Source: an uncultured Bacilli bacterium (GTDB lineage: Bacteria > Bacillota_I > Bacilli_A > RF39 > UBA660). Taken from it: a stretch of 64,000 nt of DNA. Where the stretch lies: positions 234-64,233 of the forward strand of contig CANRNO010000002.1 in the NCBI GenBank assembly GCA_947632065.1, written 5' to 3'. Position 1 is the stretch's first letter. Every line of letters starts with the position of its first letter. Shown here one piece after another: positions 24,174 to 62,611 of this stretch. The notes under the pieces were generated by a model. That model was not told the origin of the DNA. It saw only the letters and a program-made list of their open reading frames with translations, and ran no database searches. The translations under genes were made by a program, and so were the position numbers.

Positions 24174-24362
24174 CTAAGAGATTACCTTTTTTATTTTCTT
24201 ATTAAATTCTATTCTAGGAAGTAAAATAGATCTTCCACAATTTATACATTTTATTTTTATATCAGCACCCACTCTAGTAACTTCAAATTCATTTGTACCA
24301 CAAGGATGTTGTTTTTTCATAACTACTCTACTACCTAACTTATATTCTAAATTATTTTGCAT
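24174..24362 (-). CDS. DUF951 family protein (YyzM-like)
   Basis: MKKQHPCG.NEF.V.R.G.DIKIKC..CGRS.LLPR.EF motif, and the same neighbourhood as B. subtilis yyzM. Confidence 0.8.
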   Translation of the reverse strand: MQNNLEYKLGSRVVMKKQHPCGTNEFEVTRVGADIKIKCINCGRSILLPRIEFNKKIKKVIS

Positions 24363-25179
24363 TATGTACCTCTATCTGATTATAAGGAATTTTAATCGAA
24401 GCATCTTTCAATGCTTTCGCAACTTCCTTTCTCATAATTCTTTGAACATCATACTGCTTCATAGATTCAACAGGAGCAGTCATTCTATATATTATCGCAC
24501 TTTCGTCTAAATCGTCAATACCTAATACTTCAACTTCTCCTTTTAGATAATCTAATTTTTTAGTTAATTTCTTTGCAAGTTTATTTAAAACTTTATCCAC
24601 TTCATCTAAATTACTTTCATAAGCAACAGAAAAATTCAAAATAGCAACAGAATCATTAATATTATAATTGATAATTTTACTAATAGAATGATTAGCAATT
24701 ATCATAGTAGACCCATCAATGCTTTTTATTTTAGTAGATCTTAAACCCACAAAAATAACTTCTCCCATAAAATTATCTATTTTAACAGTATCTCCTATTT
24801 CAAATGCATCATCTGCAATCATAGAAATACCCGCAATAATATCTTTCGCTGTATCTTGAAAAGCAAGTCCTATTAATGCAGCAGAAACTCCAATACCAGC
24901 AATTATACCACTAACATTAACACCAAATACAGATAAAATATAAAGACCGACAAATATATAAATTATATACTTTGTAAAGTTTATAAATAATGATTGCAAT
25001 GTCTGTAATTTTTTCTTTTTATATCTAGATTTAGTTTTACTTTTTTTAATAGTAGAAATAATAAAATTCTTTACAAATTTATAAACACAAATACCAAGTA
25101 TTATACTTGTTAAACAAGCAAATAACTTTTCTAATATTAATGTTAACTCAATACCAAACACTGCCATATTATCACCCAC
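24352..25179 (-). CDS. Small-conductance mechanosensitive channel (MscS family)
   Basis: Three N-terminal TM helices, then GDTVKIDNFMGEVIFVGLRSTKIKSIDGSTMIIANHSI, the MscS beta-domain signature. Confidence 0.8.
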   Translation of the reverse strand: MGDNMAVFGIELTLILEKLFACLTSIILGICVYKFVKNFIISTIKKSKTKSRYKKKKLQTLQSLFINFTKYIIYIFVGLYILSVFGVNVSGIIAGIGVSAALIGLAFQDTAKDIIAGISMIADDAFEIGDTVKIDNFMGEVIFVGLRSTKIKSIDGSTMIIANHSISKIINYNINDSVAILNFSVAYESNLDEVDKVLNKLAKKLTKKLDYLKGEVEVLGIDDLDESAIIYRMTAPVESMKQYDVQRIMRKEVAKALKDASIKIPYNQIEVHNAK

Positions 25180-25181
25180 TT

Positions 25182-26078
25182 TTAATTAGTCAAATTCATA
25201 ATTTCCAACAATCTATTTAAATCATTTTGATTAACAAATTGAATTTCTAAACGATTATTTTTAATTTTTACTTTTGTTCCTAATTGTTCACACAAAACAT
25301 CTTCTAAATATTTATATTCTGAAGACTCTTTCTTTTTAGGAGTCGCAATTTTATTTTTTCTAGTATATTCTTCATCTTCCTTTGTTACTTCTTCTAACTG
25401 TCTAACACTAAGACCATCATTAACAACTTTACTTGCTAAAGACTTAATTTGTCCTTCATTTTCTAATTTACTAAGAACTCTAGCGTGTCCCATACTTATC
25501 TTTTTTTCTGTTATTAAATCTTTAACAGAGCTTGGGAGATTAAGAAGACCTATCATATTAGTAATATGACTTCTACTCTTTCCTAAACGTTTAGCAAGTG
25601 CTTCTTGTGTTATTTTTAAATGCTCTAACATTTTTTTATAAGCAGCTGCTTCTTCTATTGCAGTTAAATTTTCTCTTTGTAAGTTTTCAAGCAAAGCAAT
25701 TTCCATCATTTCATCATCAGTAAAATCACGTACTATCGCAGGAATTTCTTTAAGTCCTGCTATTGTTGAGGCTTTTACTCTTCTCTCACCAGCAATAATT
25801 TCATAACCTTTAATGCTTTTTTTAACAATAATAGGTTGAAAAACTCCATGTTCTTTTATTGACTCTGATAATTCTTTCAATGATTCTTCATCAAAATTTT
25901 GACGAGGTTGATATGGATTACTACGTAATTCAGAAATATTAACTTTTACAATTGCTTCTTTTGGAGTTTCTGTAATAATTCTTTCTTCAACTTTATTATA
26001 ATCCATTGGTTCATTAGAAAATAATTCTTCTAATCCACGTCCTAAAGCTTTTCTCTTATTACTTTCCATTTCTTTCAA
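25182..26078 (-). CDS. parB: Chromosome partitioning protein ParB/Spo0J
   Basis: NPYQPR box, GERR motif, and an HTH region LGKSRSHITNMIGLL..ISMGHARVL that resembles the Spo0J type rather than the Noc type. Confidence 0.9.
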   Translation of the reverse strand: MKEMESNKRKALGRGLEELFSNEPMDYNKVEERIITETPKEAIVKVNISELRSNPYQPRQNFDEESLKELSESIKEHGVFQPIIVKKSIKGYEIIAGERRVKASTIAGLKEIPAIVRDFTDDEMMEIALLENLQRENLTAIEEAAAYKKMLEHLKITQEALAKRLGKSRSHITNMIGLLNLPSSVKDLITEKKISMGHARVLSKLENEGQIKSLASKVVNDGLSVRQLEEVTKEDEEYTRKNKIATPKKKESSEYKYLEDVLCEQLGTKVKIKNNRLEIQFVNQNDLNRLLEIMNLTN

Positions 26079-26844
26079 TCACTTCCTTAGCTAAATTTAT
26101 ATAAGCCTCACTCCCTCTACTTTTAGGATCATAAGCAATAATTGGTTCTCCGTGAGAAGGAGCCTCAGTAAGTCTAATTAATCTAGGAATAATTGTATTA
26201 TATACTCTCTCTTTAAAGAATTTTCTTATATCATCCACTACTTCAAATCCTAAATTAGTTCTAGAATCCAACATAGTAAGAAGAACTCCTTCTATATCTA
26301 AATCAGGATTCAAACTTTTTTGTGCTAACATAATTGAATTTAAAAGTTGCATTATACCTTCTAATGCAAAAAACTCACATTGTACTGGAATAATTACTGA
26401 ATCAGATGCAGCAAGTGCATTAGTTGTAATTAAACCAAGAGAAGGAGGACAATCAAGAATTACATAATCAAAAGAATCTTTTATAGTATCTAAATGACTT
26501 TTTAATTGTGTACCCTTAGAAAAATCCTTTGTTGTTATTCCTTTTTCAATCAATTCAAAATCAAGTCCAGCTAAATTAATAGTCGCTGGAATAACATATA
26601 ATTTTTTATACTTTGTTTTAATAATAGCTTCATTAATTAAACATTTTGAAACTAATACATCATAAATACTTTTATCAATATCCCCTTTATTAATACCAAC
26701 ACCAGTAGTTGTATTACCTTGAGGATCTAAGTCTATAAGTAGAACTTTTTTTCCAAGTAAAGCTAAAGATGCTGAAAGGTTTATGCTTGTTGTTGTTTTA
26801 CCTACTCCACCTTTTTGATTTACTAAAGATATTACTTTGCCCAT
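26059..26844 (-). CDS. parA: Chromosome partitioning ATPase ParA/Soj
   Basis: Deviant Walker A NQKGGVGKTT. Overlaps parB. Confidence 0.95.
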   Translation of the reverse strand: MGKVISLVNQKGGVGKTTTSINLSASLALLGKKVLLIDLDPQGNTTTGVGINKGDIDKSIYDVLVSKCLINEAIIKTKYKKLYVIPATINLAGLDFELIEKGITTKDFSKGTQLKSHLDTIKDSFDYVILDCPPSLGLITTNALAASDSVIIPVQCEFFALEGIMQLLNSIMLAQKSLNPDLDIEGVLLTMLDSRTNLGFEVVDDIRKFFKERVYNTIIPRLIRLTEAPSHGEPIIAYDPKSRGSEAYINLAKEVIERNGK

Positions 26845-26875
26845 ACATACCTCACCTTTCTTCTCTACTTACAAT

Positions 26876-26884
26876 ATTGTACCA
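26876..26884 (-). promoter_or_regulatory. Extended -10 element (TGGTACAAT) upstream of parA
   Basis: Minus strand reads TGGTACAAT about 30 nt upstream of the parA ATG. The -35 element is weak. Confidence 0.35.
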
Positions 26885-26946
26885 AAAAATGAAATATTTT
26901 GAAATGCTTTTACATAAAAAAATTAAGTTTGTTTTTTTCTATCACA

Positions 26947-26982
26947 CAAAAAACAACATATTAATTTTTAATATGTTGTTTT
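26947..26982 (-). terminator. Rho-independent terminator after the noc-like gene
   Basis: 13-bp perfect stem AACAACATATTAA / TTAATATGTTGTT plus a U-tract on the minus strand. Confidence 0.7.
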
Positions 26983-26984
26983 AA

Positions 26985-28595
26985 TCAATCATTTTCTTCT
27001 TCTACTTGAGGCTTTTGAATTTTGATAACAATCTGATATGAGTTTTCAAAATTCATTTCCTCTGTATCTATTTTTAAATTATTTTTCTCTAAACTTCTAA
27101 CAGTATCACGTATAGTATTTATTCCAGCTTGAACATCATAATTAACTGCTCGTTTTCTATTCGCTTCTTCCTTATCTTCTTTCAATTCTGGATAAGCATC
27201 TTCTTTTAAAGCATCACGATAAGAAGTAGCTTTCAAATAATCAGAACTAACTCCCCCACTTTTATTTTTTCTTTCAAATTCTTCTATTGTTGGAGTCTTA
27301 AATAAAGTTTCATCAAAATGAGCAAAATCTGGTTCTTTCTCTTCTTGGTCTGCTTTTTCATCTTTTTCAGGTTCTTTATAATTTTCTAAATCTTCTTCAT
27401 CAAAAGAATCATCATAATCATCACTATCTTCACTCACATCAAAAGAATCATTTTCATCCATTTCCTCTTTTGGACTCATCTTAGGTGGCCTAATATTTAA
27501 TAAACTATCCAAAGATGAAACAGAAGGACCATTATCATTATCTGAGTTTGGTAAATTTTCTTCTGTAGAAAAGAATCTATTACTCTCAGATAAATCATTA
27601 TCTTCCCTTGGTGTTGAAGTAAATTCAAAATTTTTCTGTGAAGAATCATCATCGTCATCATCATTATCTAAATCAGGATCAATCTCACCATAATTAATAA
27701 ACTTAGGTTTCTCGATATCCAAAAAATCATTATCTAATTTATCTTCATTCTTAGCTTCATCTATCAATTGTGGCTTATAAGAATCATCTCTATCATTTTC
27801 TTTATCTATTTTATTATTATGCTCTAACTCTTTTGTAACATCATCAAAATCTATTAAAGTATCAGGTTTAGGTGGAACATGATGTTTTTCTTCTGGATCT
27901 GGGTTTTCAAATGAATCAAATTTAAATTCCTGTGATTTTTCTTCTTGTCTTTCTTCTTCATCAGGACGTGTCTTATTCATTTCTTCATTCATATGTTGAC
28001 CATGTTTTATCAATCTTTCTAATTCTCTTACTGTAATACGTTCTTGAATTACTTTCTTAACAAGTTTCTCTTGCTCCTCTTTATCAGGAACAGAAAGTAA
28101 AGTTCTTGCATGTCTCTCTGAAATTTTCGCATTCAAAAGTGCATTTTGTACACCTTCTGATAAAGACAATAAACGTAATTTATTAGCAACTGCTGATTGA
28201 CTTTTTCCCATAGTCTTTGCAAGTTCTTCTTGTGTCATTTGATCTATTTCTAATACTTTTTGATAAGTCTTTGCTTCTTCTATAGGGTTAAGATTTTTTC
28301 TTTGTAAATTCTCAAGTAAAGCAACTTTAGAACTTTCTTTATCATCTAAATCACGAATTATTGCAGGAATCTTAGTAAGACCTGCTTTTGCAGAAGCTTT
28401 ATATCTTCTCTCACCAGCAATAATCTCATATTTTTCACCATTTCTACGAACAATAATAGGTTGAATAACACCATGTTCTTTAATAGAAACAGCAAGTTCC
28501 TTCAAAGATCTTTCATCAAATAATTCCCTAGGTTGAAAACGATTAGGTATTATATCATCTAAATATAAATATACAACCTCATTCTCTGAATGCAT
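26985..28595 (-). CDS. noc: Noc-like ParB-family protein with a long acidic internal region
   Basis: ParB N-domain (NRFQPR, GERR). HTH GKSQSAVANKLRLL..ISERHARTL resembles B. subtilis Noc (GKGQSTIANKLRLL..ITERHARAL). About 280 aa of D/E/N/K-rich low complexity precede a short C-terminal domain. ATG at 28595 preferred over the GTG at 28607. Confidence 0.75.
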   Translation of the reverse strand: MHSENEVVYLYLDDIIPNRFQPRELFDERSLKELAVSIKEHGVIQPIIVRRNGEKYEIIAGERRYKASAKAGLTKIPAIIRDLDDKESSKVALLENLQRKNLNPIEEAKTYQKVLEIDQMTQEELAKTMGKSQSAVANKLRLLSLSEGVQNALLNAKISERHARTLLSVPDKEEQEKLVKKVIQERITVRELERLIKHGQHMNEEMNKTRPDEEERQEEKSQEFKFDSFENPDPEEKHHVPPKPDTLIDFDDVTKELEHNNKIDKENDRDDSYKPQLIDEAKNEDKLDNDFLDIEKPKFINYGEIDPDLDNDDDDDDSSQKNFEFTSTPREDNDLSESNRFFSTEENLPNSDNDNGPSVSSLDSLLNIRPPKMSPKEEMDENDSFDVSEDSDDYDDSFDEEDLENYKEPEKDEKADQEEKEPDFAHFDETLFKTPTIEEFERKNKSGGVSSDYLKATSYRDALKEDAYPELKEDKEEANRKRAVNYDVQAGINTIRDTVRSLEKNNLKIDTEEMNFENSYQIVIKIQKPQVEEEND

Positions 28596-28706
28596 ATAAT
28601 CACCCACTTTTATTCTCTTTTAATAACAAAACCCCTATTATCAATATACATTATATCATTAAAACCTATAAAATTACAATAAATTTTCTTACTTTTATTA
28701 TAATTT

Positions 28707-44625: not shown

Positions 44626-46302
44626 TTATTCATATTCTACAATATCGCCAAACATCTCAACAATAGATTCAGAATTAACATCATCACTTTCTGACTTATT
44701 ATCTTCTTCTAATTTTGGCTCTTCTTGGTACTCATATAGTATACCATTTTTTTTGTTTTTAATATACTCTTCTTTCATTTTTTCCCAATTTTCATCTGTA
44801 ATAAATGCAAGAGACACATCAAGACCTGTAACTTGATTATAAACACTTTGTAATTTATCTATATTTTTAAGATTCTCCTTAACAGACGAATCATATTCAT
44901 AACTCAAAATAACATTTCTTTCACTAGCAGCTCTAATAGTGGCATCCATTATATCACATATAAGATAACCTATTTTTGTATCAAAAGTAAAATCACTAAA
45001 CTTAGAAAAAAGATTTTTATTTTTTAAAAGTGAATCCTTAGAAGCCTCGGCAAAAGTATTATTTATTCTTACATCATTAACTTCATATAAAAACTTTAAA
45101 TTATTTTCAACAGAATTATCTATTCTTTTTGAAGGTTCATTCTTTTTATCCACAGATATCTTTTTGTCTTCTATAATTTCTTTTTCCACAGTTTTAATCT
45201 CTTCTGTTTCATTTTTCTTTTCCACAACTTCAGCAACTTCTTGCTTTTCTTTTAATAAAACATTAGAAAAACTCCTCAAAACATTTAAAATCAATATTTC
45301 AAAATAAATATTAGGATGCTCACTTCTTTTTATTTCGAACATTTTTTCGTTCAAGGTATTAGCTAACAACTCTACTCGTTCAATATTAACCGCCTTAGGA
45401 ATATTTCCCTTTAAATAATAATCCACAATTAAATCAGATAATTTATACACAAGTTGATTAGCAATCTGAATAATATTTTTTCCACTATTGAAATAATCAT
45501 TTATCCTACTTACTAATTCTTGCTTATTTCCCATACAAAAATCAGTAATAAAATCTATTATTTCTTTTTCCCCAAGTAATGAATTCAACTTATAAAAATC
45601 ATCTAAGGTAATTTCACCTTTCTTATAAATTGACAACTTATCTAACATTCCTAAAGAATCTCTCATTCCACCTTCAGAAACCTTAGCTATTTCAAATAAA
45701 ACTTCATCAGATATATTTATTTTTTCCACATCACAAATATATCTTAATCTTCTAACAATATCATTATTAGACACACGTTCAAAAGAAAAAGTTTGGCATC
45801 TTGAAATAATAGTTTCGGGAACCTTATCAATCTCCGTAGTAGCCAGAATAAAAATACTATGTGCAGGTGGTTCTTCAATAGTTTTAAGCAGAGCATTAAA
45901 AGCTCCCATAGATAACATATGTACTTCATCCACTATATATATTTTATAATTTAAACTACTAGGAACCAAATTAACTTTGCTTTTTAATTCTCTTATTTCA
46001 TCAACACCATTATTAGAAGCAGCATCTATCTCAATAATATCAACACATTCGTTTTCTCTAGATACAACACAATTTTCGCATTCATCACATAGTAACTTAC
46101 CATCCGGATGAGAGCAATTAACAGCACGAGCCATTATTTTAGCTAAAGTTGTCTTTCCAGTCCCTCTAGGTCCATAAAAAATATATGAATGACTAATTTT
46201 ATTATTTTTGATTGCATTTTGCAATGTTTTAACAACAATTTGTTGCCCAACAACATCTTCAAAATTCTTTGGGCGATATTTACGATATAATACCTGATAC
46301 AT
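44626..46302 (-). CDS. dnaX: DNA polymerase III gamma/tau subunit
   Basis: YRKYRP..F.DVVGQ, GPRGTGKTT and SRCQ motifs. The ATG at 46302 follows a GGAGG SD. Confidence 0.95.
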   Translation of the reverse strand: MYQVLYRKYRPKNFEDVVGQQIVVKTLQNAIKNNKISHSYIFYGPRGTGKTTLAKIMARAVNCSHPDGKLLCDECENCVVSRENECVDIIEIDAASNNGVDEIRELKSKVNLVPSSLNYKIYIVDEVHMLSMGAFNALLKTIEEPPAHSIFILATTEIDKVPETIISRCQTFSFERVSNNDIVRRLRYICDVEKINISDEVLFEIAKVSEGGMRDSLGMLDKLSIYKKGEITLDDFYKLNSLLGEKEIIDFITDFCMGNKQELVSRINDYFNSGKNIIQIANQLVYKLSDLIVDYYLKGNIPKAVNIERVELLANTLNEKMFEIKRSEHPNIYFEILILNVLRSFSNVLLKEKQEVAEVVEKKNETEEIKTVEKEIIEDKKISVDKKNEPSKRIDNSVENNLKFLYEVNDVRINNTFAEASKDSLLKNKNLFSKFSDFTFDTKIGYLICDIMDATIRAASERNVILSYEYDSSVKENLKNIDKLQSVYNQVTGLDVSLAFITDENWEKMKEEYIKNKKNGILYEYQEEPKLEEDNKSESDDVNSESIVEMFGDIVEYE

Positions 46303-46350: not shown

Positions 46351-46794
46351 TTATCTTTTATTCTCAAAAAATTCTTTCATTATTTCTTTTATATCTTCTG
46401 CACAAATATTACTTTCATAATTAACTTTTTTATTTGTAGCACTCCCATCAAAAATTTGTCTTATTATTTTATAATTATTCTTATCAGAATTTTCTAATCC
46501 ATAATAAACTTTTCTTATTCTTGATTGTTGAATTGCACTAGCACACATAGGACAAGGTTCTAATGTTATATAAATATCACAATCATTAAGTCTCCAATTT
46601 CCCATTTTCTTTTGAGCTTTTTCTATCGCAATAATTTCAGCATGTTTTAATACATTGTTAAGTTTATTTTTTTTATTATATCCTCGAGCAATTATTTTAT
46701 TATCTTTAACAATAACTGCTCCGATTGGAACTTCATCTATATCATACGCTTTTTTTGCTTCTTTTATTGCTTCTTTCATATATTTTATTTTCAT
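46351..46794 (-). CDS. tadA: tRNA adenosine(34) deaminase
   Basis: HAE and PCPMC zinc motifs. Start set at the ATG at 46794 with a GGAAGTG SD. The longer ORF-track start (46875) overlaps the SRP RNA. Confidence 0.9.
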   Translation of the reverse strand: MKIKYMKEAIKEAKKAYDIDEVPIGAVIVKDNKIIARGYNKKNKLNNVLKHAEIIAIEKAQKKMGNWRLNDCDIYITLEPCPMCASAIQQSRIRKVYYGLENSDKNNYKIIRQIFDGSATNKKVNYESNICAEDIKEIMKEFFENKR

Positions 46795-46807
46795 AGTAAT
46801 CACTTCC

Positions 46808-46897
46808 AAAAAATAAAGATGCACATAAGTAACAAATGTTAAGGCTGCTATTTTCCAATCCTGACCTGATTCCACCGATACTTATTGCATCAAGATG
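46808..46897 (-). ncRNA. ffs: Small (4.5S-type) signal recognition particle RNA
   Basis: Minus strand reads AUCAGGUCAGGAUUGGAAAAUAGCAGCC, which matches the domain IV consensus CAGGUCAGG-stem-GGAA tetraloop-stem-AGCAGCC. Closing helix GAUGCAAUAAGUA / UACUUAUGUGCAUC, an upstream TATAAT and a 3' U-tract. Confidence 0.8.
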
Positions 46898-46952
46898 ATT
46901 ATATTATATAATTTTTAATTTAACAACATTTTTTATTTATTTTATAAAAAAT

Positions 46953-46968
46953 TATTTCCCAAGAAATA
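46953..46968. promoter_or_regulatory. Noc-binding-site-like sequence (14/16 match)
   Basis: TATTTCCCAAGAAATA vs the NBS consensus TATTTCCCGGGAAATA. Confidence 0.5.
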
Positions 46969-46984
46969 TTTAGTACTATCAAAA

Positions 46985-47000
46985 TATTTCCCGGGAAATA
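46985..47000. promoter_or_regulatory. Noc-binding site (NBS), perfect consensus
   Basis: TATTTCCCGGGAAATA. The palindrome extends to 24 nt (46981-47004). Confidence 0.75.
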
Positions 47001-47011
47001 TTTTTATTATA

Positions 47012-47027
47012 AGTTTCACGTGAAACT
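47012..47027. promoter_or_regulatory. parS: parS site (14/16 match)
   Basis: AGTTTCACGTGAAACT vs the parS consensus TGTTTCACGTGAAACA. The core 14 nt are identical. Confidence 0.7.
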
Positions 47028-47040
47028 ATATATATTTTTT

Positions 47041-47056
47041 TGTTTCACGTGAAACA
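47041..47056. promoter_or_regulatory. parS: parS site, perfect palindromic consensus
   Basis: TGTTTCACGTGAAACA, 16/16. Confidence 0.85.
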
Positions 47057-47085: not shown

Positions 47086-49545
47086 TTACTCAGTAATTTG
47101 TTCTTCTTGTTCTGATGTTTCTTCTTGCTCTTCCTGTTGAACTACAGCAACTGTTGATACACTTTGTTTTTCTTTTAAATGAATTAGTCTTACTCCTTGA
47201 GTTGCTCTTTTCAATATAGATACTTGAGATAATGGCATTTTCATCAATATTCCACTATCAGTTATAATCATTAAATCTTTTTTCTCAATATCATTAACAC
47301 ATTTTAAAGATACTATATTTCCATTTTTCTCAGTAATATTTAATGTTTTAACTCCTTTGCTACCTCTATGTGTTAATCTATATTCCTCGATTTTAGTTTG
47401 TTTTCCATATCCCTTTTCTGATATAACCAATATATAATCTCCAGGTTTTACTACTTCTGCACCTACAACTTTATTTCCACATAAATCTATTCCTTTTACA
47501 CCTGAAGCTGTTCTACCCATAACTCTTACTTCGTTTTCAGAAAATCTAACCATTCTACCTGATGAAGATCCTATAGCTATTTCATCATCTCCGCTTGTAG
47601 CTTTTACACTTATTAACTGATCATCATCTTTTAAAGTAATTGATATTTTTCCACTTTTTCTTATATTATCAAATTCCTCAACCTTAGTTCTTTTTACCAA
47701 ACCATTAACAGTTGTAAAAACTAAGTATTTAACTTTTTCCTCAGCATTCTCATCATACTTAATAATAGAATTAATTTTTTCATCTTTTTCTAATGCTAAC
47801 AAGTTAATAATAGGAATACCTTTTGATTGTCTACTAAACTCTGGGATAGTATATCCTTTCATTCTATAAACCTTTCCCTTATTAGAGAAGAATAATATAT
47901 AATCATGTGTTTTCATAGAAATTAAATGATCCACAAAGTCTTCTTCGTTAGTACTCATTCCTTTAACTCCTACTCCACCACGATTTTGAGTACGATAAGT
48001 ATCTGCTTTTAATCGTTTAATATATCCATTATTAGTTAAAGTTACAATTATGTTTTCCACAGGTATTAATGATTCATCTTCTATATATTCAATAGCTGTC
48101 ATATCAATATCTGTTTTTCTTTCATCACCATATTTGTTCTTAATTTCAAGCATTTCTTCTTTTATTATATTTAAAACTTTTTCCTCAGAAGCAAGAATTG
48201 ATTTTAACTCTTCGATTTCTTTTAACAATGCTTCTAATTCGTTTTCCACTTTTTCACGTTCTAATCCAGTCAAACGACGTAATTTCATTTCTAATATAGC
48301 TTGTGCTTGAGCTTCTGTTAAATTATATTTACTCATCAAGCCCTGCATTGCTTCTTCATCTTTTTTAGAACCTCTAATTAAAGCAATTATTTCATCAATA
48401 TGATCTAATGCAATCTTTAATCCCTCTAAAATATGCGCTCTAGCTTCATCTTTTTGTAAATCAAACTTAGTACGACGAATAATAATTTCTTTTTGATAAT
48501 CAATATATTTAGAAATTATATCTTTTAAACCTAATGTTTTTGGCACTCCTTGGTCTAACATTAAAAAATTAATACCATAACTAGTTTGAAATGCAGTATG
48601 TTTATATAAATTATTTAGTACTACTTGAGGATTAGCATCTTTCTTCAAAGTTATAGTTATTTTAACACCATTTTTCAAATCAGTATGATAATCAGCAATA
48701 CCATCTATAACTTTATTATGAACTAAATCTGCAACTTTATTTTTCAAATCTAATGTATTAATTCCATAAGGTACTTCATCAATTATAATATAATGTTTTC
48801 CTTTTTCCTCTTCGATTTTAGCTCTACTTCTTATAGTAATAGTACCTTTTCCTGTTTCATAAGCTTTTTTAATTCCACTATTTCCCAAGATAATTGCACC
48901 AGTTGGAAAATCAGGTCCTTTTATAAATTGCATTAATCCATCTGTATCAATATCAGGGTTATCTATGTATGCAACACAACCATCAATTACTTCTCCCAAA
49001 TTATGAGGAGGAATATTGGTTGCCATACCAACTGCAATTCCCATAGTACCATTTACTAATATATTAGGAAATCTAGATGGTAAAATCTCTGGTTCTTTCT
49101 CTGATTCATCAAAGTTAGGAACAAAATCCACAGTATTTTTATTAATATTTCTTAATAATTCCAAAGAAATTTTAGAAAGACGAGATTCTGTATAACGCAT
49201 TGCTGCTGCCCCATATCCTTCTATATTACCAAAATTACCATGACCATCAACTAACATGTAACGATAAGAAAAATCTTGTGCCATACGAACCATTGCCTCG
49301 TAAATACTAGAATCACCATGTGGGTGATATTTTCCCATAACATCTCCGACGATTCTTGCACTTTTCTTATGAGGTTTATCAGGAGTATATCCAGATTCAT
49401 ACATAGAATACAAAATTCTTCTATGAACAGGCTTTAATCCATCCCTTAAATCAGGTAAAGCCCTAGAAACTATTACACTCATAGAATATTCCAAAAAAGA
49501 ATCTCTAACTTCATTTACAATATTATTTTGTTCTAATCTATCCAT
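47086..49545 (-). CDS. gyrA: DNA gyrase subunit A
   Basis: 819 aa. [16 protein letters not shown] and AAMRYTE (active-site Tyr) motifs. Confidence 0.98.
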
Positions 49546-52693: not shown

Positions 52694-52726
52694 ACCAAAA
52701 AAAGTTACAACTACTGTAACTTTTTT
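52694..52726 (-). terminator. Rho-independent terminator of comK
   Basis: GTTACA-GTAGT-TGTAAC hairpin flanked by A and U runs. Overlaps the stop codon. Confidence 0.6.
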
Positions 52727-53160
52727 CTATTTCTTATAAGTGATTCTAATCTTGTAGCTCTAAGAAGTTGATTCTGAAAAGATCTATATGAAACAGGTAC
52801 AATTATCTGTGTATCATTTTCAAATGTTACTCTAATACTATTACTACTTAATTCTTCATAATCCTTTACTTGTTTAGAAGCAATCCATACACATTTAGGA
52901 TCTTGAGGTGAAATTGTTGGAAAGAATACTAAATTATTATAATCTTCAACAACAATAGGAACTTTATATTCTACTCCTAAAATAGATTTTGCTCCTTCCT
53001 TTCTACCTTCATATGAACTACCAAAATACCTACAACTATCATCCATTATTTCAAATGGAACCTTATCTACTACATATTCATTATCATCTTCAAATACTTT
53101 ACTTGAAGATTTCTTCATTGGAACTATTGCTAAAGTTCCTTCACTTACTTCATAATTCAT
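52711..53160 (-). CDS. comK: Competence transcription factor ComK family
   Basis: Aligns block by block with remembered B. subtilis ComK: NYEVSEGTLAIVP, SCRYFGSSYEGRKEGA, LVFFPTISPQDPKCVWI and VSYRSFQNQLLRA. ATG at 53160 with a GGGGGT SD. Confidence 0.85.
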   Translation of the reverse strand: MNYEVSEGTLAIVPMKKSSSKVFEDDNEYVVDKVPFEIMDDSCRYFGSSYEGRKEGAKSILGVEYKVPIVVEDYNNLVFFPTISPQDPKCVWIASKQVKDYEELSSNSIRVTFENDTQIIVPVSYRSFQNQLLRATRLESLIRNRKKLQ

Positions 53161-53273
53161 CTTATTACCCCCTATCTTGAAAACTTGAGCCCCCGTTTTC
53201 AATACCATAATAGCACATCCTTATGTCGAAAAAGCACGAAAAATGTCATATTTAAAAAAATATTAAAATTTAT

Positions 53274-54427: not shown

Positions 54428-54575
54428 TATATATACCTTCTTTCTTTTTATAATTATTTTTTATATTATTACTGTGGAAAAAGTTTAAAACTATATTTTT
54501 CCTTATTATTACTACAAATTATTAAACATTTCTATGTGGAAAACAAGTGAATAATTTTATATTTTCCACAAATGA
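54428..54575. other. oriC: oriC downstream module (dnaA-dnaN intergenic): three DnaA boxes plus an AT-rich candidate unwinding element
   Basis: Exact TTTTCCACA boxes at 54473-54481 (reverse), 54535-54543 (reverse) and 54562-54570. 54428-54472 is almost pure A/T. Confidence 0.75.
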
Positions 54576-55952
54576 TTATTGAATATCTTTTTTTAGCTTT
54601 TCTATAATATTAACTAAATCTTTATTAACTTTTAATTCTTGTTCTATTTTTTCAACAGAGTGCATTACTGTAGAATGGTCCTTTCCTCCAAATTCAGTTC
54701 CAATTTTAGGAAAAGATTCATCAGTAAGTTGTCTACATAAATACATGGCAATCTGTCTTGGAAAAGCAATATTAGCATTCCTTTTTTTACTTCTAATATC
54801 ATCCACACTAATTTGGAAATATTCAGATACAATTTTTTGAATTCTATGTACATCATTTTTTTCATAAAGACCTTTACTAATAAAGTCTTTTAAAGCTTCG
54901 ATTGCTAAATCAAGATCAATTTTAGAACTTCCCATAATAGCTGAATATGCAACAAGTCTTGTAATAGATCCTTCTAATTGTCTAACATCATTTCCCATAT
55001 TAGAAGCAATATATTCAATAACATCATCAGGAATTTCTTGTTCTATATTTCCAGCTGAAATCTTTTTCTTTAAAATTTCTTTTCTAAGATTAAAATCAGG
55101 AGGATCAATATTAACAGTCAAACCCCAACAAAATCTTGTTTTTAACCTACTTTCTAATAGTTTTAAATCATCTGGAGATCTATCAGAAGATATTATAATC
55201 TGCTTATTATTATCGTGTAAACTAGTAAAAGTATGAAAAAATTCTTGTTGTGATTGAGTAGCTCTACCCAAAAATTGTATATCATCTATCATTAAAACAT
55301 CAATATTTCGGTATTTATTTTTGAAAAAATTGACGGAATCAAAGTTTGTCCCCTTCTCATCTTTTTTATTTATTCCTATAAAATCATCAATAAATTGATC
55401 ACTTGTAACATAAAGGACTTTCTTATTACTATGTTCCACAATATAATTTCCAATCGCATGCATTAAGTGAGTCTTTCCTAGCCCACTATTACCATATAAA
55501 AATAATGGATTATACATTTTACCTGGATTTTCTGCAACAGAACAAGCTGCTGCTTGAGCAAATTTATTGCTACTACCTACTATAAAATTTTCAAAAGTAT
55601 ATTTTGGATTTAAATTATTCCTAGCAGGTGGTGGATTAAGTCCGCTAAAAAAAACATCTTCTCTTAAATTTTCTGGTTGCCTCTCCTCTACTTCTTGCTT
55701 TTGTACCTCTTCAGGAAGAAGAAACTCGATATCAAACTCTTCACCAGTAACATCTTCTAAAGTCTTTATAATCAATTCTAAATAATTATCAGCTAAATGT
55801 TTCTTATGTATAGACATAGGAACCAATATAACAGCTTTCCCGTCTTCCAAACTATAAAGTTTAGTCTCTGCAAACCAAGTCTTATAAGAAAGTGAAGTTA
55901 AATCTTGATTGATTTGCTTCAAAAAATTAGACCAAATTATTTCAACATTCAT
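54576..55952 (-). CDS. dnaA: Chromosomal replication initiator DnaA
   Basis: 458 aa. Walker A GNSGLGKTHL, domain IV FGGKDHSTVMH. Confidence 0.98.
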   Translation of the reverse strand: MNVEIIWSNFLKQINQDLTSLSYKTWFAETKLYSLEDGKAVILVPMSIHKKHLADNYLELIIKTLEDVTGEEFDIEFLLPEEVQKQEVEERQPENLREDVFFSGLNPPPARNNLNPKYTFENFIVGSSNKFAQAAACSVAENPGKMYNPLFLYGNSGLGKTHLMHAIGNYIVEHSNKKVLYVTSDQFIDDFIGINKKDEKGTNFDSVNFFKNKYRNIDVLMIDDIQFLGRATQSQQEFFHTFTSLHDNNKQIIISSDRSPDDLKLLESRLKTRFCWGLTVNIDPPDFNLRKEILKKKISAGNIEQEIPDDVIEYIASNMGNDVRQLEGSITRLVAYSAIMGSSKIDLDLAIEALKDFISKGLYEKNDVHRIQKIVSEYFQISVDDIRSKKRNANIAFPRQIAMYLCRQLTDESFPKIGTEFGGKDHSTVMHSVEKIEQELKVNKDLVNIIEKLKKDIQ

Positions 55953-56216
55953 TCTACCACTCCCCTATAAAAACGAAAATATAAAAGATAAATCTAGTGT
56001 AACTCATCTGAGGAAAAAGGTAAATAAAATATTTAAAAAAAATTTAATTCACAACTTTTCCTCATTTTTTTCCTCAATTAAAAACTTTATTTTAAAAAGA
56101 AAAAGTATTGTTTTCCACATTTTCCACAAATTTAAATCCTCAATTGTTAATAATGAAATCCACAAGGCTGTGAAAACTGTGAATTAAATTTATTTCAACA
56201 AATTTCGCTATACTAA
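55953..56216. other. oriC: oriC upstream module (rpmH-dnaA intergenic) with a DnaA-box cluster
   Basis: Tandem exact TTTTCCACA boxes at 56111-56119 and 56120-56128. Weaker boxes are AAATCCACA at 56156-56164, TGTGAATTA at 56178-56186 and TAATTCACA at 56045-56053. Confidence 0.75.
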
Positions 56217-56246
56217 TTGACAAAAACCTATTTTTTCTATTATAAT
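56217..56246 (+). promoter_or_regulatory. Sigma-A promoter of rpmH
   Basis: TTGACA (56217-56222) - 18 nt - TATAAT (56241-56246). Confidence 0.5.
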
Positions 56247-56277
56247 AATGGAGATTTATGACTGGAGGTGGACTGTA

Positions 56278-56400
56278 ATGAAAAGAACATATCAACCAAA
56301 CAATAGAAAAAAAGCAAAGAAACATGGATTTTTTGCACGCAAGAAAACTAATATTCTAAATAGACGTCGTCGTAAAGGTCGTAAAAGACTTTGTAAATAG
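56278..56400 (+). CDS. rpmH: 50S ribosomal protein L34
   Basis: Not in the ORF track because it is under 60 aa. My translation is [40 protein letters not shown], with a GGAGGTGG SD upstream. Confidence 0.9.
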
Positions 56401-56404
56401 TATT

Positions 56405-56428
56405 CCACTTTAAACAAAGTGGTTTTTT
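56405..56428 (+). terminator. Hairpin plus T-tract between rpmH and rnpA (terminator/attenuator)
   Basis: CCACTTT-AAAC-AAAGTGG followed by TTTTTT. Confidence 0.6.
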
Positions 56429-56449
56429 ACTATTATAAAGAGGTGTCAT

Positions 56450-59769: not shown

Positions 59770-61626
59770 ATGAAATATGAAGTAATAGTAGTAGGAGGAG
59801 GTCATGCTGGATGTGAAGCATCCCTTGCAGCTTCTCGTATGGGACATAAAACATTATTAATAACAGGTAATAAAAATAATATTGCTGATATGCCATGTAA
59901 TCCATCTATTGGAGGACCTGCTAAAGGTATAGTTGTAAGAGAAATAGATGCTTTAGGTGGAGAAATGGGAAAAAATACAGATAAAGGTTCTATTCAAATG
60001 AAAATGTTAAATACAAAAAAAGGACCAGCAGTAAGAGCCCTAAGAGCCCAAGCAGATAAAACAACTTATCCAAAAGAAATGTTAAAAACATTAGAAAATG
60101 AAGAAAACTTAACAATAAAAGAAGCAATGGTAGAAGATTTAATAGTAGAAGAGAACATAATAAAAGGTGTAATATTAGAAAATAAAGAAGAAATTCTATC
60201 AGATGCTGTAATATTAACAACAGGAACTTATCTAAAAGGACAAGTATTAGTCGGAAGTAAAAAGACAAGTAGTGGACCCCATGGGGAAAAACCAAGTCTT
60301 CATTTAAGTGATAAACTAAAAGAATTAGGATTTACTATATTAAGATTAAAAACAGGAACACCACCAAGATTAGAAAAATCATCAATTGATTATACACAAA
60401 CTAGTCTAGAACCTGGAGATAATGAAGTACATAATTTTTCTTTCTATGAAAAAACAGAATATGATCCGGAAAAACAAACTCCATGTCATCTAATATATAC
60501 AAACGAAAAAACCCACCAAATAATAAACGAACATTTAGATGAATCAAGTATGTACGGAGGTTATGTAGAAGGAGTAGGACCAAGATATTGTCCTTCTATA
60601 GAAGATAAAGTAGTAAGATTTAAAGATAAAAATCGTCATCAATTATTTTTAGAACCAGAAAGTCTTTATTATGATGATATATATTTACAAGGATTTTCAA
60701 CAAGTATGCCTCACTATGTCCAAGAACAAATGGTACATAGTCTTAAAGGGTTAGAAAATGCTAAAATATTAAAATATGCTTATGCTATTGAATATGATGC
60801 AATAGATTCTAGACAATTAAAGCAAAGTCTAGAAAGTAAATTAGTAGAAGGACTATATACTGCAGGACAAATCAATGGAACAAGTGGATATGAAGAAGCA
60901 GCAGGACAAGGATTAATAGCTGGAATTAATGCTTCATTAAAACTTGAAGGAAAACAACCATTAATATTAAAAAGAAATGAATCATATATTGGAGTTCTAA
61001 TAGATGACCTAACAACAAAAGGAGTAAGAGATCCATACAGATTACTAACATCACGAGCTGAATATAGATTACTATTACGTCATGACAATGCTGATTTAAG
61101 ACTTAGTGAATATGGTCATCAAATAGGATTATTAAAAGAAGAATATTATCAAAAATTCCAAAAAAAGAAACAAGGAATAAAAGAATTAATAACTTTCTTA
61201 GAAAATAATAAAATAACTCCTACAAAAGAAGTAAATAAATATTTAAAAGAAATACATTCTGCAGAACTAAAAGATGGTATAACTTTGTATAATTTATTAA
61301 AAAGACCAGAGATAACAATAGAAAATATAAAACATTTCTATCCTTTAGAATATCCAAAAGAAGTAATAGAACAAGTAGAAATTAATATAAAATATGAAGG
61401 ATACATTAAAAAAAGTCAAAAAGAAGCAGAGAAAATGTTAGAATTAGAAAACAAATTAATTCCAAAAGATATAGATTATAGTCAAATTTCAAATATAGCA
61501 AGCGAAGCAAAACAAAAATTATCAGAGATAAGACCAACCTCTATAGGTCAAGCATCTCGTATAAGTGGAGTAAATCCAGCCGATATTTCTATATTAATGG
61601 TTTATTTAAGAAAGAAGGCTAAATAA
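59770..61626 (+). CDS. mnmG: tRNA uridine 5-carboxymethylaminomethyl modification enzyme MnmG
   Basis: [16 protein letters not shown] motif and [11 protein letters not shown]. Confidence 0.97.
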
Positions 61627-62270
61627 TGACATGGGATGAATTTATACAAGAAACAAAAAAATTAGGAATACAAATAGATAAAGAAAAAGAAAATAAATTA
61701 AAAAAATTTTACAAATTACTTATTGAATGGAATCAGAAAATAAATTTAACTAGAATAACTGATGAACAAGAAGTTTATGAGAAACATTTTTATGATAGCC
61801 TAACTCTATCAAAAGTAGTTTCCTTAAAAGAAGAGAAAACTCTATTAGATATAGGAACAGGAGCAGGTTTTCCTGGAATAGTATTAAAAATATGTTATCC
61901 AAATTTAAAAATAACATTAATAGATTCTCTTTTAAAAAGAGTAAATTACTTAAACGAAATAATAAAAGAACTAGATTTAAAAGAAATAGAAGCCATTCAT
62001 ACTAGAGCAGAATTCTACAAACAAGAAAATAAAAAGTTTGATATTGTAACTTCAAGAGCGGTAGCAAAACTTCCTAAACTTCTAAATTATGCATTACCTT
62101 TCTTAAAAAAAGAAGGAATATTTGTAGCTATGAAAGCAAGTGTAGAAGAAGAGATAAAAGAGTCTCAAAATATATTAAATAAGAAAAAATATAAAATATC
62201 AAAGATTGAAACATTTAATCTACCAAAAGAAAAAAGTTTAAGAAATTTAGTAGTTATCAAAAGAAAATAA
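61626..62270 (+). CDS. rsmG: 16S rRNA (guanine527-N7)-methyltransferase
   Basis: NLT.I.....V.EKHF.DSL and DIGTGAGFPG motifs. Confidence 0.93.
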   Translation: MTWDEFIQETKKLGIQIDKEKENKLKKFYKLLIEWNQKINLTRITDEQEVYEKHFYDSLTLSKVVSLKEEKTLLDIGTGAGFPGIVLKICYPNLKITLIDSLLKRVNYLNEIIKELDLKEIEAIHTRAEFYKQENKKFDIVTSRAVAKLPKLLNYALPFLKKEGIFVAMKASVEEEIKESQNILNKKKYKISKIETFNLPKEKSLRNLVVIKRK

Positions 62271-62320
62271 TAGTTCTTAAAAACACTTAATCCTCATACA
62301 CTAAAGTAGGAGGACATAAT

Positions 62321-62611
62321 ATGGACAATAAAGAGAACATAAATAATTATAATCATGGTATAAATTTAGTAGAAAGAAAAAACCTAGTTATTTCAGGTGT
62401 AAAAAAAATAGAAAACTTCGATAAAGAACAATTTTTAATTGAAACAGTAATGGGAATGTTATTAGTAAAAGGAGAAGACTTAATATTAATTAAATTAGAT
62501 ACATTACAAGGTTCTCTTGCCATCAAAGGAATGGTAAGAAGTCTTTCTTATATAGAAGAAAATAAATTCAAAGATAAGGAAAATAGTATTTTTAATAGGC
62601 TTTTTAAATAA
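62321..62611 (+). CDS. yabP: Sporulation protein YabP
   Basis: 96 aa with an R..L.ISGV..I..FD......T..G.L.VKGEDL.I..L pattern. yabP-yabQ-divIC order as in B. subtilis. Confidence 0.8.
   Translation: MDNKENINNYNHGINLVERKNLVISGVKKIENFDKEQFLIETVMGMLLVKGEDLILIKLDTLQGSLAIKGMVRSLSYIEENKFKDKENSIFNRLFK

Follow-up and report, generated by a model that had tools for sequence, protein, structure and literature searches.

Why should the predicted loading sites of two paralogous ParB-family clamps stand side by side, within 104 bp, close to a bacterial replication origin? ParB and Noc are textbook paralogues that have split in DNA specificity and in function (segregation versus nucleoid occlusion), and their site sets, parS and NBS, are described as separate. 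The whole stretch of DNA analysed here (the window, 64 kb) holds four palindromes of these two kinds in the spacer between gyrA and ffs:

46953-46968, no strand: NBS-like palindrome TATTTCCCAAGAAATA, 14/16 with 2 mismatches
46985-47000, no strand: perfect NBS TATTTCCCGGGAAATA, 16/16
47012-47027, no strand: parS-like palindrome AGTTTCACGTGAAACT, 14/16, its 14-bp core perfect
47041-47056, no strand: perfect parS TGTTTCACGTGAAACA, 16/16, with the gyrA stop codon 30 bp away

The site starts lie 32, 27 and 29 bp apart, and the coordinates and match counts that a first-pass annotation had given for the four palindromes at 46953-47056 (14, 16, 14 and 16 of 16) are borne out. For parS, the sites at 47041 and 47012 were scored against the 16-bp consensus TGTTNCACGTGAAACA (16/16 and 14/16, respectively); the NBS consensus is identical to the site at 46985-47000, and what sets it apart from parS are positions 1 and 6 in either half-site. 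The same annotation had taken these four sites to be the sole matches in 64 kb, which holds when up to two mismatches are allowed, while at three mismatches a single extra NBS-like site appears inside dnaX (45402-45417, TATTTCCCTTTAAATA). Dinucleotide-preserving shuffles give a chance expectation, at three mismatches or fewer, of 0.25 (parS) and 0.18 (NBS) sites per window, which corresponds to about 0.0007 sites per 104 bp. The hexamers CCCGGG and CACGTG are rare, as had been claimed: the former occurs once in 64 kb, within the perfect NBS at 46985-47000, and the latter five times in the window, twice of these in the array.

The array lies among housekeeping genes near the origin, which can be placed as follows:

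47086-49545, minus strand: gyrA (1157 bits on its NCBIfam model), the array's conserved upstream flank, with synteny in about 90 related loci
46810-46896, minus strand: ffs, the small SRP RNA (53.6 bits, Rfam RF00169), the downstream flank
46898-46926, minus strand: putative sigma-70-like promoter TTGTTA-17-TATAAT directly upstream of ffs, a consensus match only
54428-56449, no strand: oriC region, with dnaA, DnaA-box clusters on either side and the GC-skew switch
54576-55952, minus strand: dnaA, inside the oriC region

The end of the array is 27 bp upstream of the -35 hexamer of the putative ffs promoter. From dnaA, the DnaA-box clusters (54473-54570 and 56111-56128) and the flip of the GC skew near 56 kb, the array is placed 7.5-9 kb from oriC, in agreement with the roughly 9 kb first estimated. 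A role of the palindromes as a gyrA terminator was ruled out, as they lack a subsequent T-run when read in the direction of gyrA. Several further features of the region were observed along the way. Within dnaX, six DnaA-box-like 9-mers lie on one strand at 45146-45730, one of them perfect (TTATCCACA), beside the three-mismatch NBS-like site. At 46351-46896, the longest tadA ORF, whose GTG is at 46875, shares sequence with ffs; the later tadA start chosen by gene callers (147 aa) is in keeping with an independent ffs gene that precedes tadA. Between dnaN and recF, a ComK-family ORF is found throughout the clade (52711-53208, minus strand, in the window), its assignment being based on PF06338 in an identical gene (L002) and in relatives.

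Which proteins would read the sites? The window encodes two members of the ParB family, and three consecutive genes on the minus strand make up the relevant cluster:

26985-28607, minus strand: NocL, 540 aa, Noc-type ParB paralogue and presumed NBS binder (Pfam ParB_N and HTH_ParB)
26059-26844, minus strand: ParA/Soj-type ATPase (ParA-superfamily models), between the two ParB-family genes
25182-26078, minus strand: canonical chromosomal ParB/Spo0J, 298 aa, presumed parS binder (Pfam, solved-structure match)

The assignment of the 298-aa protein as ParB is consistent across several measures. Among solved structures, it matches B. subtilis Spo0J best (6sdk, 223 bits versus 159 for Noc), it is more similar to Spo0J (54%) than to Noc (44%), its N-terminus carries the KRKALGRGLEELF motif, and its specificity columns read R-M-N-G in an alignment where B. 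subtilis Spo0J has RHTG. On the NCBIfam model for Noc (TIGR04285) it scores 240.9 bits. Both ParB and NocL retain the CTP-binding boxes, and both have GERRxKA rather than GERRxRA in ParB box II, with lysine in place of the third arginine.

NocL is composed of a ParB_N plus HTH_ParB core (residues 11-211) joined through a linker (about 212-495) to a Noc-like C-terminal domain, which presumably resembles that of B. subtilis Noc. Its best solved-structure matches are Noc proteins (7ng0/7nfu; 207 bits for Geobacillus and 182 for B. subtilis, with Spo0J at 177), and its similarity to Geobacillus Noc (54%) exceeds that to its own ParB (49%). The specificity columns of NocL align as Q-K-S-R with QKKR in Geobacillus Noc. 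For NBS preference, Q173 and R201 together with one lysine at 179 or 184 suffice (Jalal et al., PMC7383237), and NocL has the residues which this rule assigns to an NBS-type protein. The same is true of the family, of which we sampled 146 representatives (clusters at 50% identity): Q173 is found in 146/146, K179 and R201 each in 145/146, and K184 in 0/146. The CTP boxes are present in NocL (GERRYKA and ENLQR) and conserved family-wide, with lysine as third basic residue of GERRxKA being the majority state (127/146). In relatives (L133, L134, L138), the gene order is rsmG-NocL-parA-parB-mscS-DUF951. Judged by reciprocal similarity and gene order, NocL is an orthologue-like relative of Noc.

In the window itself, yabP comes after rsmG at 61626-62611, and the NocL-parA-parB-mscS block (24352-28607) is found about 28 kb away, across oriC, which indicates a rearrangement of the origin region. 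Outside the window, we infer that NocL and the array share one contig from the identical size of 72,954 bp and from the fact that L135 and L138, which stem from two samples, overlap by 115/115 nt.

There is one conspicuous departure from Noc as it is known. The N-terminal amphipathic, membrane-targeting helix of Noc (aa 1-10/15) is required for function and was present in all homologues examined (Adams et al., PMC4331003; PMC8429893), and NocL shows no such helix in the alignment to its structure matches, in the DNA upstream of its start or in its AlphaFold2 model. Residue 8 of NocL aligns with residue 25 of Geobacillus Noc, an in-frame stop codon precedes the GTG start by four codons, and the first element of the model is a strand (residues 11-15) with no helix before it. 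The late start, the upstream stop and the model thus together indicate that the membrane helix is absent. Nor was it found in the family, in the 28 homologues and 146 representatives that were examined, where 14-22 residues precede NRFQPR (median 17 in the 146). Furthermore, the 300.9 bits of NocL on TIGR04285 stay below the cut-off of 315. The statement of the first-pass annotation that both clamps are encoded in the window therefore stands as far as specificity is concerned, with a ParB of the parS type and a paralogue of the NBS type, but the Noc-type protein is atypical, lacking the membrane helix and falling under the cut-off. For the same two reasons, the nucleoid occlusion role that had been attached to it is not to be assumed.

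The second unusual trait of NocL is its linker of about 290 aa, which is 32% Asp/Glu with a net charge of -56 and is predicted to be disordered, while the C-terminal domain is modelled with confidence (residues 492-531, AlphaFold). Great length is a property of the family: each of the best 120 database matches to NocL is 409-556 aa long, and the median of the 146 representatives is 461 aa. Two short motifs, PKFINYGEI (about 300-308) and (A)DLDSLL (365-370), are conserved amid the fast-evolving acidic disorder and coincide with small pLDDT bumps, which makes them candidates for binding a partner; across the wider family, they are for the most part missing.

Is the neighbourhood of NBS and parS a peculiarity of this one genome? 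We scanned 185,579 species genomes for TTTCCCGGGAAA, followed after a gap of 2-32 bases by TTTCACGTGAAA, and obtained at least 119 stretches with adjacent NBS and parS. Among the 119 matches listed, 115 have a GC content of 23-37%, and about 112 represent the same locus, gyrB-gyrA-[sites]-tadA/ffs-[sites]-dnaX-ybaB-recR, where the GyrA proteins of the matches listed are 61-83% identical to that of the window. This conservation of housekeeping-gene synteny also ruled out a mobile element or phage as the origin of the array. The records behind the matches listed are uncultured gut MAGs titled 'Bacilli', 'Erysipelotrichaceae' or 'Tenericutes', as well as Clostridium sp. CAG:710 and Ca. Onthousia. 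We speak of the clade simply as uncultured gut Bacilli of low GC, with Ca. Faecimonas and Ca. Onthousia being classed as 'Bacilli incertae sedis'. This label is kept broad because some MAG titles ('Muribaculaceae', 'archaeon', 'Mycoplasma') clash with a Firmicute gene content and because the NCBI taxonomy is ambiguous for 'Candidatus Scybalousia', which it places under Bacteroidales.

Loci that were selected by the pattern are ascertained for adjacency, and relatives were for this reason also sampled by GyrA protein alone. In all five relatives selected in this way (L127, L128, L129, L131, L135), the gyrA-tadA spacer contains a mixture of NBS (N) and parS (P). Together with L122, their arrangements are:

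L127, GyrA 91% identical: P N N P
L128, GyrA 85%: P N P P
L129, GyrA 84%: N P P
L131, GyrA 84%: N P P N P
L135, GyrA 83%: P P N P
L122, 70% over the GyrA C-terminal query: P P N P P P P

The gyrA-tadA spacer holds all parS sites of these six loci, and no parS or NBS was found in about 50 kb across oriC in three relatives. A metagenome scan with the GyrA C-terminus gave a small unbiased sample of five loci, two of which are distant (GC 50%) and uninformative. Among more distant loci, L124 has a parS-only cluster at the locus, and in L123 the parS sites are accompanied by a single NBS at a distance of 1.7 kb; such parS-only clusters in distant loci imply a phylogenetic boundary of the composite form. 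The array is thus conserved in relatives, as an alignment across them had been expected to tell, both in the about 112 matches listed at the same locus and in 5/5 protein-selected relatives.

What is conserved is the mixture rather than any particular arrangement of it. The window and L127 share a four-site scaffold in which the site type differs at positions 2 and 4; at position 4, the NBS-like site at 46953 of the window has a perfect parS as its counterpart. Since the type differs at homologous scaffold positions, sites evidently change type over time, probably through conversion among the members of an array. Across this deep clade, then, the predicted parS and NBS sites are kept as a mixture at one syntenic position, while their number, order and spacing turn over.

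How sharply the two site classes are kept apart can be read from their sequences. Over 851 kb, the loci among the matches listed contain 350 NBS-like sites and 480 parS-like ones, and 822 matches to the shared framework in related loci sort into 452 pure parS, 349 pure NBS, 0 chimeric and 21 other sites. Such discrete classes argue for selection on both kinds of site and for their binding by homodimers, and the lack of any chimeric palindrome ruled out that they serve ParB/NocL heterodimers. The closeness of the two classes goes well beyond the pair by which a locus was found: with the ascertained pair of each locus removed, 167 of the 223 NBS left have a parS no more than 100 bp away, where uniform placement would predict 24.8. 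In the DNA examined (the 64 kb of the window and about 1 Mb of origin-region loci), the juxtaposition is not a chance outcome of many dispersed sites.

In some species, the four-site array as found in the window is replaced by tandem arrays, whose unit periods are lineage-specific:

L084:4442-5534: 83 bp x 13.2 copies, one parS and one NBS per unit
L054:7095-7754: 75 bp x 8.8 copies, one parS and one NBS per unit
L042:4295-6446: 172 bp x 8.7 copies, one parS and one NBS per unit
L055:1139-2103: period of about 80 bp
L033, L041, L112 and L109: periods of about 84, 76, 105 and 56 bp

The periods of the first three were determined by a tandem-repeat finder, those of the others were read off the site coordinates, and the units are 92-95% identical in L084 and L054. 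These arrays have to be considered when asking whether the two site types alternate. Among neighbouring sites there are 480 unlike pairs, 29 NBS-NBS pairs and 147 parS-parS pairs, and a pooled test gives 461 alternations against an expected 340 +/- 10.5. We discount this pooled value, because a test per locus (64 versus 28 loci, p = 2e-4 overall) shows that tandem arrays drive it, and in loci with 4-8 sites there is only a trend (35 versus 22 loci, p = 0.11). Strict alternation thus stems largely from tandem duplication of a two-site unit. The distances between NBS and parS centres are bimodal at 25-27 and 35-37 bp, the latter being the main mode, with a minor mode at 48-49 bp. The steps of about 10-11 bp between these modes hint at phasing with the DNA helix; in a phasing test on the NBS-parS spacing, R was about 0.3 across periods of 10.5-12 bp, which is too broad, and the claim was dropped.

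We consider it on balance probable that the 104-bp segment is an origin-proximal centromere of a composite form typical for the clade, comprising loading sites for two paralogous ParB-family CTP clamps. The best surviving alternative is that the two site types are merely co-located, each being selected near oriC on its own account in a long non-coding spacer that tolerates palindromes and their duplication and lets sites interconvert, with NocL acting at many sites, in roles akin to occlusion or replication control, and without any functional coupling to ParB. This would agree with the switches of site type at homologous scaffold positions in close relatives, which repeat turnover predicts, with the influence that S. 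aureus Noc has on replication initiation (PMC5540599), and with the existence of lone NBS: counted over the window and about 1 Mb of origin-region loci, 41 of 339 NBS (about 12%) are more than 1 kb from any parS, and NocL is hence predicted to load elsewhere too, as canonical Noc does. Such lone sites are recurrent in two places. One is dnaX, where perfect or near-perfect NBS occur around residue 350-400 in 11 related loci; the other is the junction of rsmI (TP_methylase) and pth about 7 kb downstream of the array, where a lone perfect NBS is found in three relatives (L128:19847, L131:20039, L135:19986), with no NBS at this junction in the window. Set against this are the 88% of NBS that do have a parS within 1 kb and, in the same DNA, the near absence of parS without an NBS inside 1 kb (4/439). 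Moreover, unlike sites stand closer together than like ones, as parS-parS neighbours less than 35 bp apart are rare (2/147) and NBS-parS pairs are common in this range. The mixture persists over 61-91% GyrA identity despite a complete turnover of arrangement, and the membrane helix which B. subtilis Noc needs for occlusion (PMC4331003) is missing from NocL. While the lone NBS and the non-significant alternation in small arrays keep independent co-location alive, we regard it as unlikely.

A second alternative, which appears rather improbable to us, is antagonism or insulation. Here, NocL at the NBS, as a roadblock or steric competitor, would limit ParB in loading at adjacent parS or in sliding on towards gyrA, ffs and dnaX, or ParB would do the same to NocL, such that the array would be a regulated centromere or a switch. 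The geometry of the window lends itself to such a reading, with the NBS pair facing ffs and the parS pair facing gyrA, and so does the small distance between sites in general, since NBS and parS centres are mostly 22-40 bp apart, which leaves 6-24 bp between the 16-bp sites. DNA-bound roadblocks are reported to halt ParB clamps in vitro, with bypass through dimer-dimer recruitment being possible (PMC8299390, PMC9242446). However, NBS are in most arrays interleaved on the inside and not placed at the edges, and they would thus trap ParB rather than bound it, and at the main spacing of 35-37 bp both sites could be occupied at the same time. A pure brake would likewise be hard to square with a pair that has been amplified to 9-13 copies, so that the interleaving and the pair amplification both speak against a pure boundary or brake.

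Finally, the idea that the NBS-like palindromes belong to another factor, or are chance or structural palindromes, is hardly credible in view of the 16/16 match to the experimentally defined NBS, the 349 copies pure at all four specificity positions, the paralogue with matching Q/K/R residues that is encoded nearby (and family-wide), and a chance expectation of only 0.18 per 64 kb.

How would a composite centromere for two clamps work? ParB homodimers would nucleate at parS and NocL homodimers at NBS, and each dimer would close into a CTP clamp and slide outward. With the loading sites interleaved at about 25-37 bp, both clamps would share and fill the same few kilobases and form one mixed nucleoprotein complex. 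In this complex, ParB would provide the interface to ParA and probably also to SMC, whereas the linker of NocL and its short motifs may add a second property to the origin complex, be it a partner, a tether or a material property. NocL, being devoid of the membrane helix, would not be expected to perform chromosome-wide, membrane-coupled nucleoid occlusion, the process in which Noc brings DNA to the membrane and thereby prevents division over the nucleoid. One may go further and suppose that NocL is a second centromere clamp and not an occlusion factor at all, and that the bipartite ParB/NocL centromere may even be the ancestral state, from which the Noc of Bacillales later gained its helix and dispersed its sites; this step is compatible with the genomic data, and we put it forward tentatively, as less likely than not.

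It is instructive to compare the locus with systems that are better understood. With the Noc-NBS system of B. subtilis and S. aureus, it has in common the identical 16-bp NBS consensus, the Q173/K179/R201-type residues and the CTP boxes (PMC7383237, PMC8429893), and the NocL gene of the relatives lies between rsmG and parA-parB, which is the position of noc in B. subtilis. The differences are the missing N-terminal amphipathic membrane helix (PMC4331003), a position 184 that is never lysine in the NocL family, a linker of about 150-500 aa which the family inserts before the C-terminal domain (acidic in the protein of the window), the score below the NCBIfam cut-off for Noc, and the placement of the sites, which in the DNA examined are concentrated among parS, whereas those of Noc are described as scattered over the origin-proximal part of the chromosome and missing around the terminus. 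As in chromosomal ParABS systems, there are perfect and near-perfect parS less than 10 kb from oriC, a canonical ParB with the N-terminus for ParA interaction, and an adjacent parA. Unlike in those systems, the parS sites are interleaved with the predicted loading sites of a second ParB-family protein, and in some relatives they come in 9-12 tandem copies, each paired with an NBS.

The tandem arrays also recall plasmid centromeres. The sopC of F consists of 12 x 43-bp repeats, and the parS of P1 has A- and B-boxes; in both plasmids, as far as is known, one ParB reads all motifs (plus IHF in P1). Alike are the head-to-tail units with a palindrome for a partition protein and, for P1, the composite nature with more than one motif class; the difference is that the two motif classes here match two paralogous clamps, and that the array is chromosomal and bound to one syntenic locus. 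A further comparison is that to RacA and its ram sites, which serve origin anchoring in sporulating B. subtilis and place the sites of a second DNA-binding protein near oriC beside Spo0J and parS. To our knowledge, RacA is not a ParB-family CTP clamp and the ram sites are unrelated to parS, such that the analogy is functional only and NocL is likened to RacA solely by the origin-near sites of a second DNA-binding protein.

Both site types and both protein families are already known. What appears to be new is the interleaving, the paired units and the helix-less family: in the open-access and bioRxiv literature, which we searched also with the NBS 16-mer, we could not find a description of conserved parS/NBS interleaving, of tandem parS plus NBS units or of a long Noc-type family without the helix.

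If the composite reading is correct, paralogous CTP clamps may share DNA, and the 104-bp segment would be a natural substrate on which to study how such clamps mix or block each other. For genome annotation, the example of NocL cautions that naming proteins 'Noc' by homology may be misleading across a very large family, which comprises at least 146 clusters at 50% identity. The NBS-parS array may furthermore serve as a simple marker of the origin region in many genomes of uncultured gut Bacilli. With respect to the history of the two proteins, it may be that the genomes of this clade have retained an intermediate stage on the evolutionary path from ParB to Noc.
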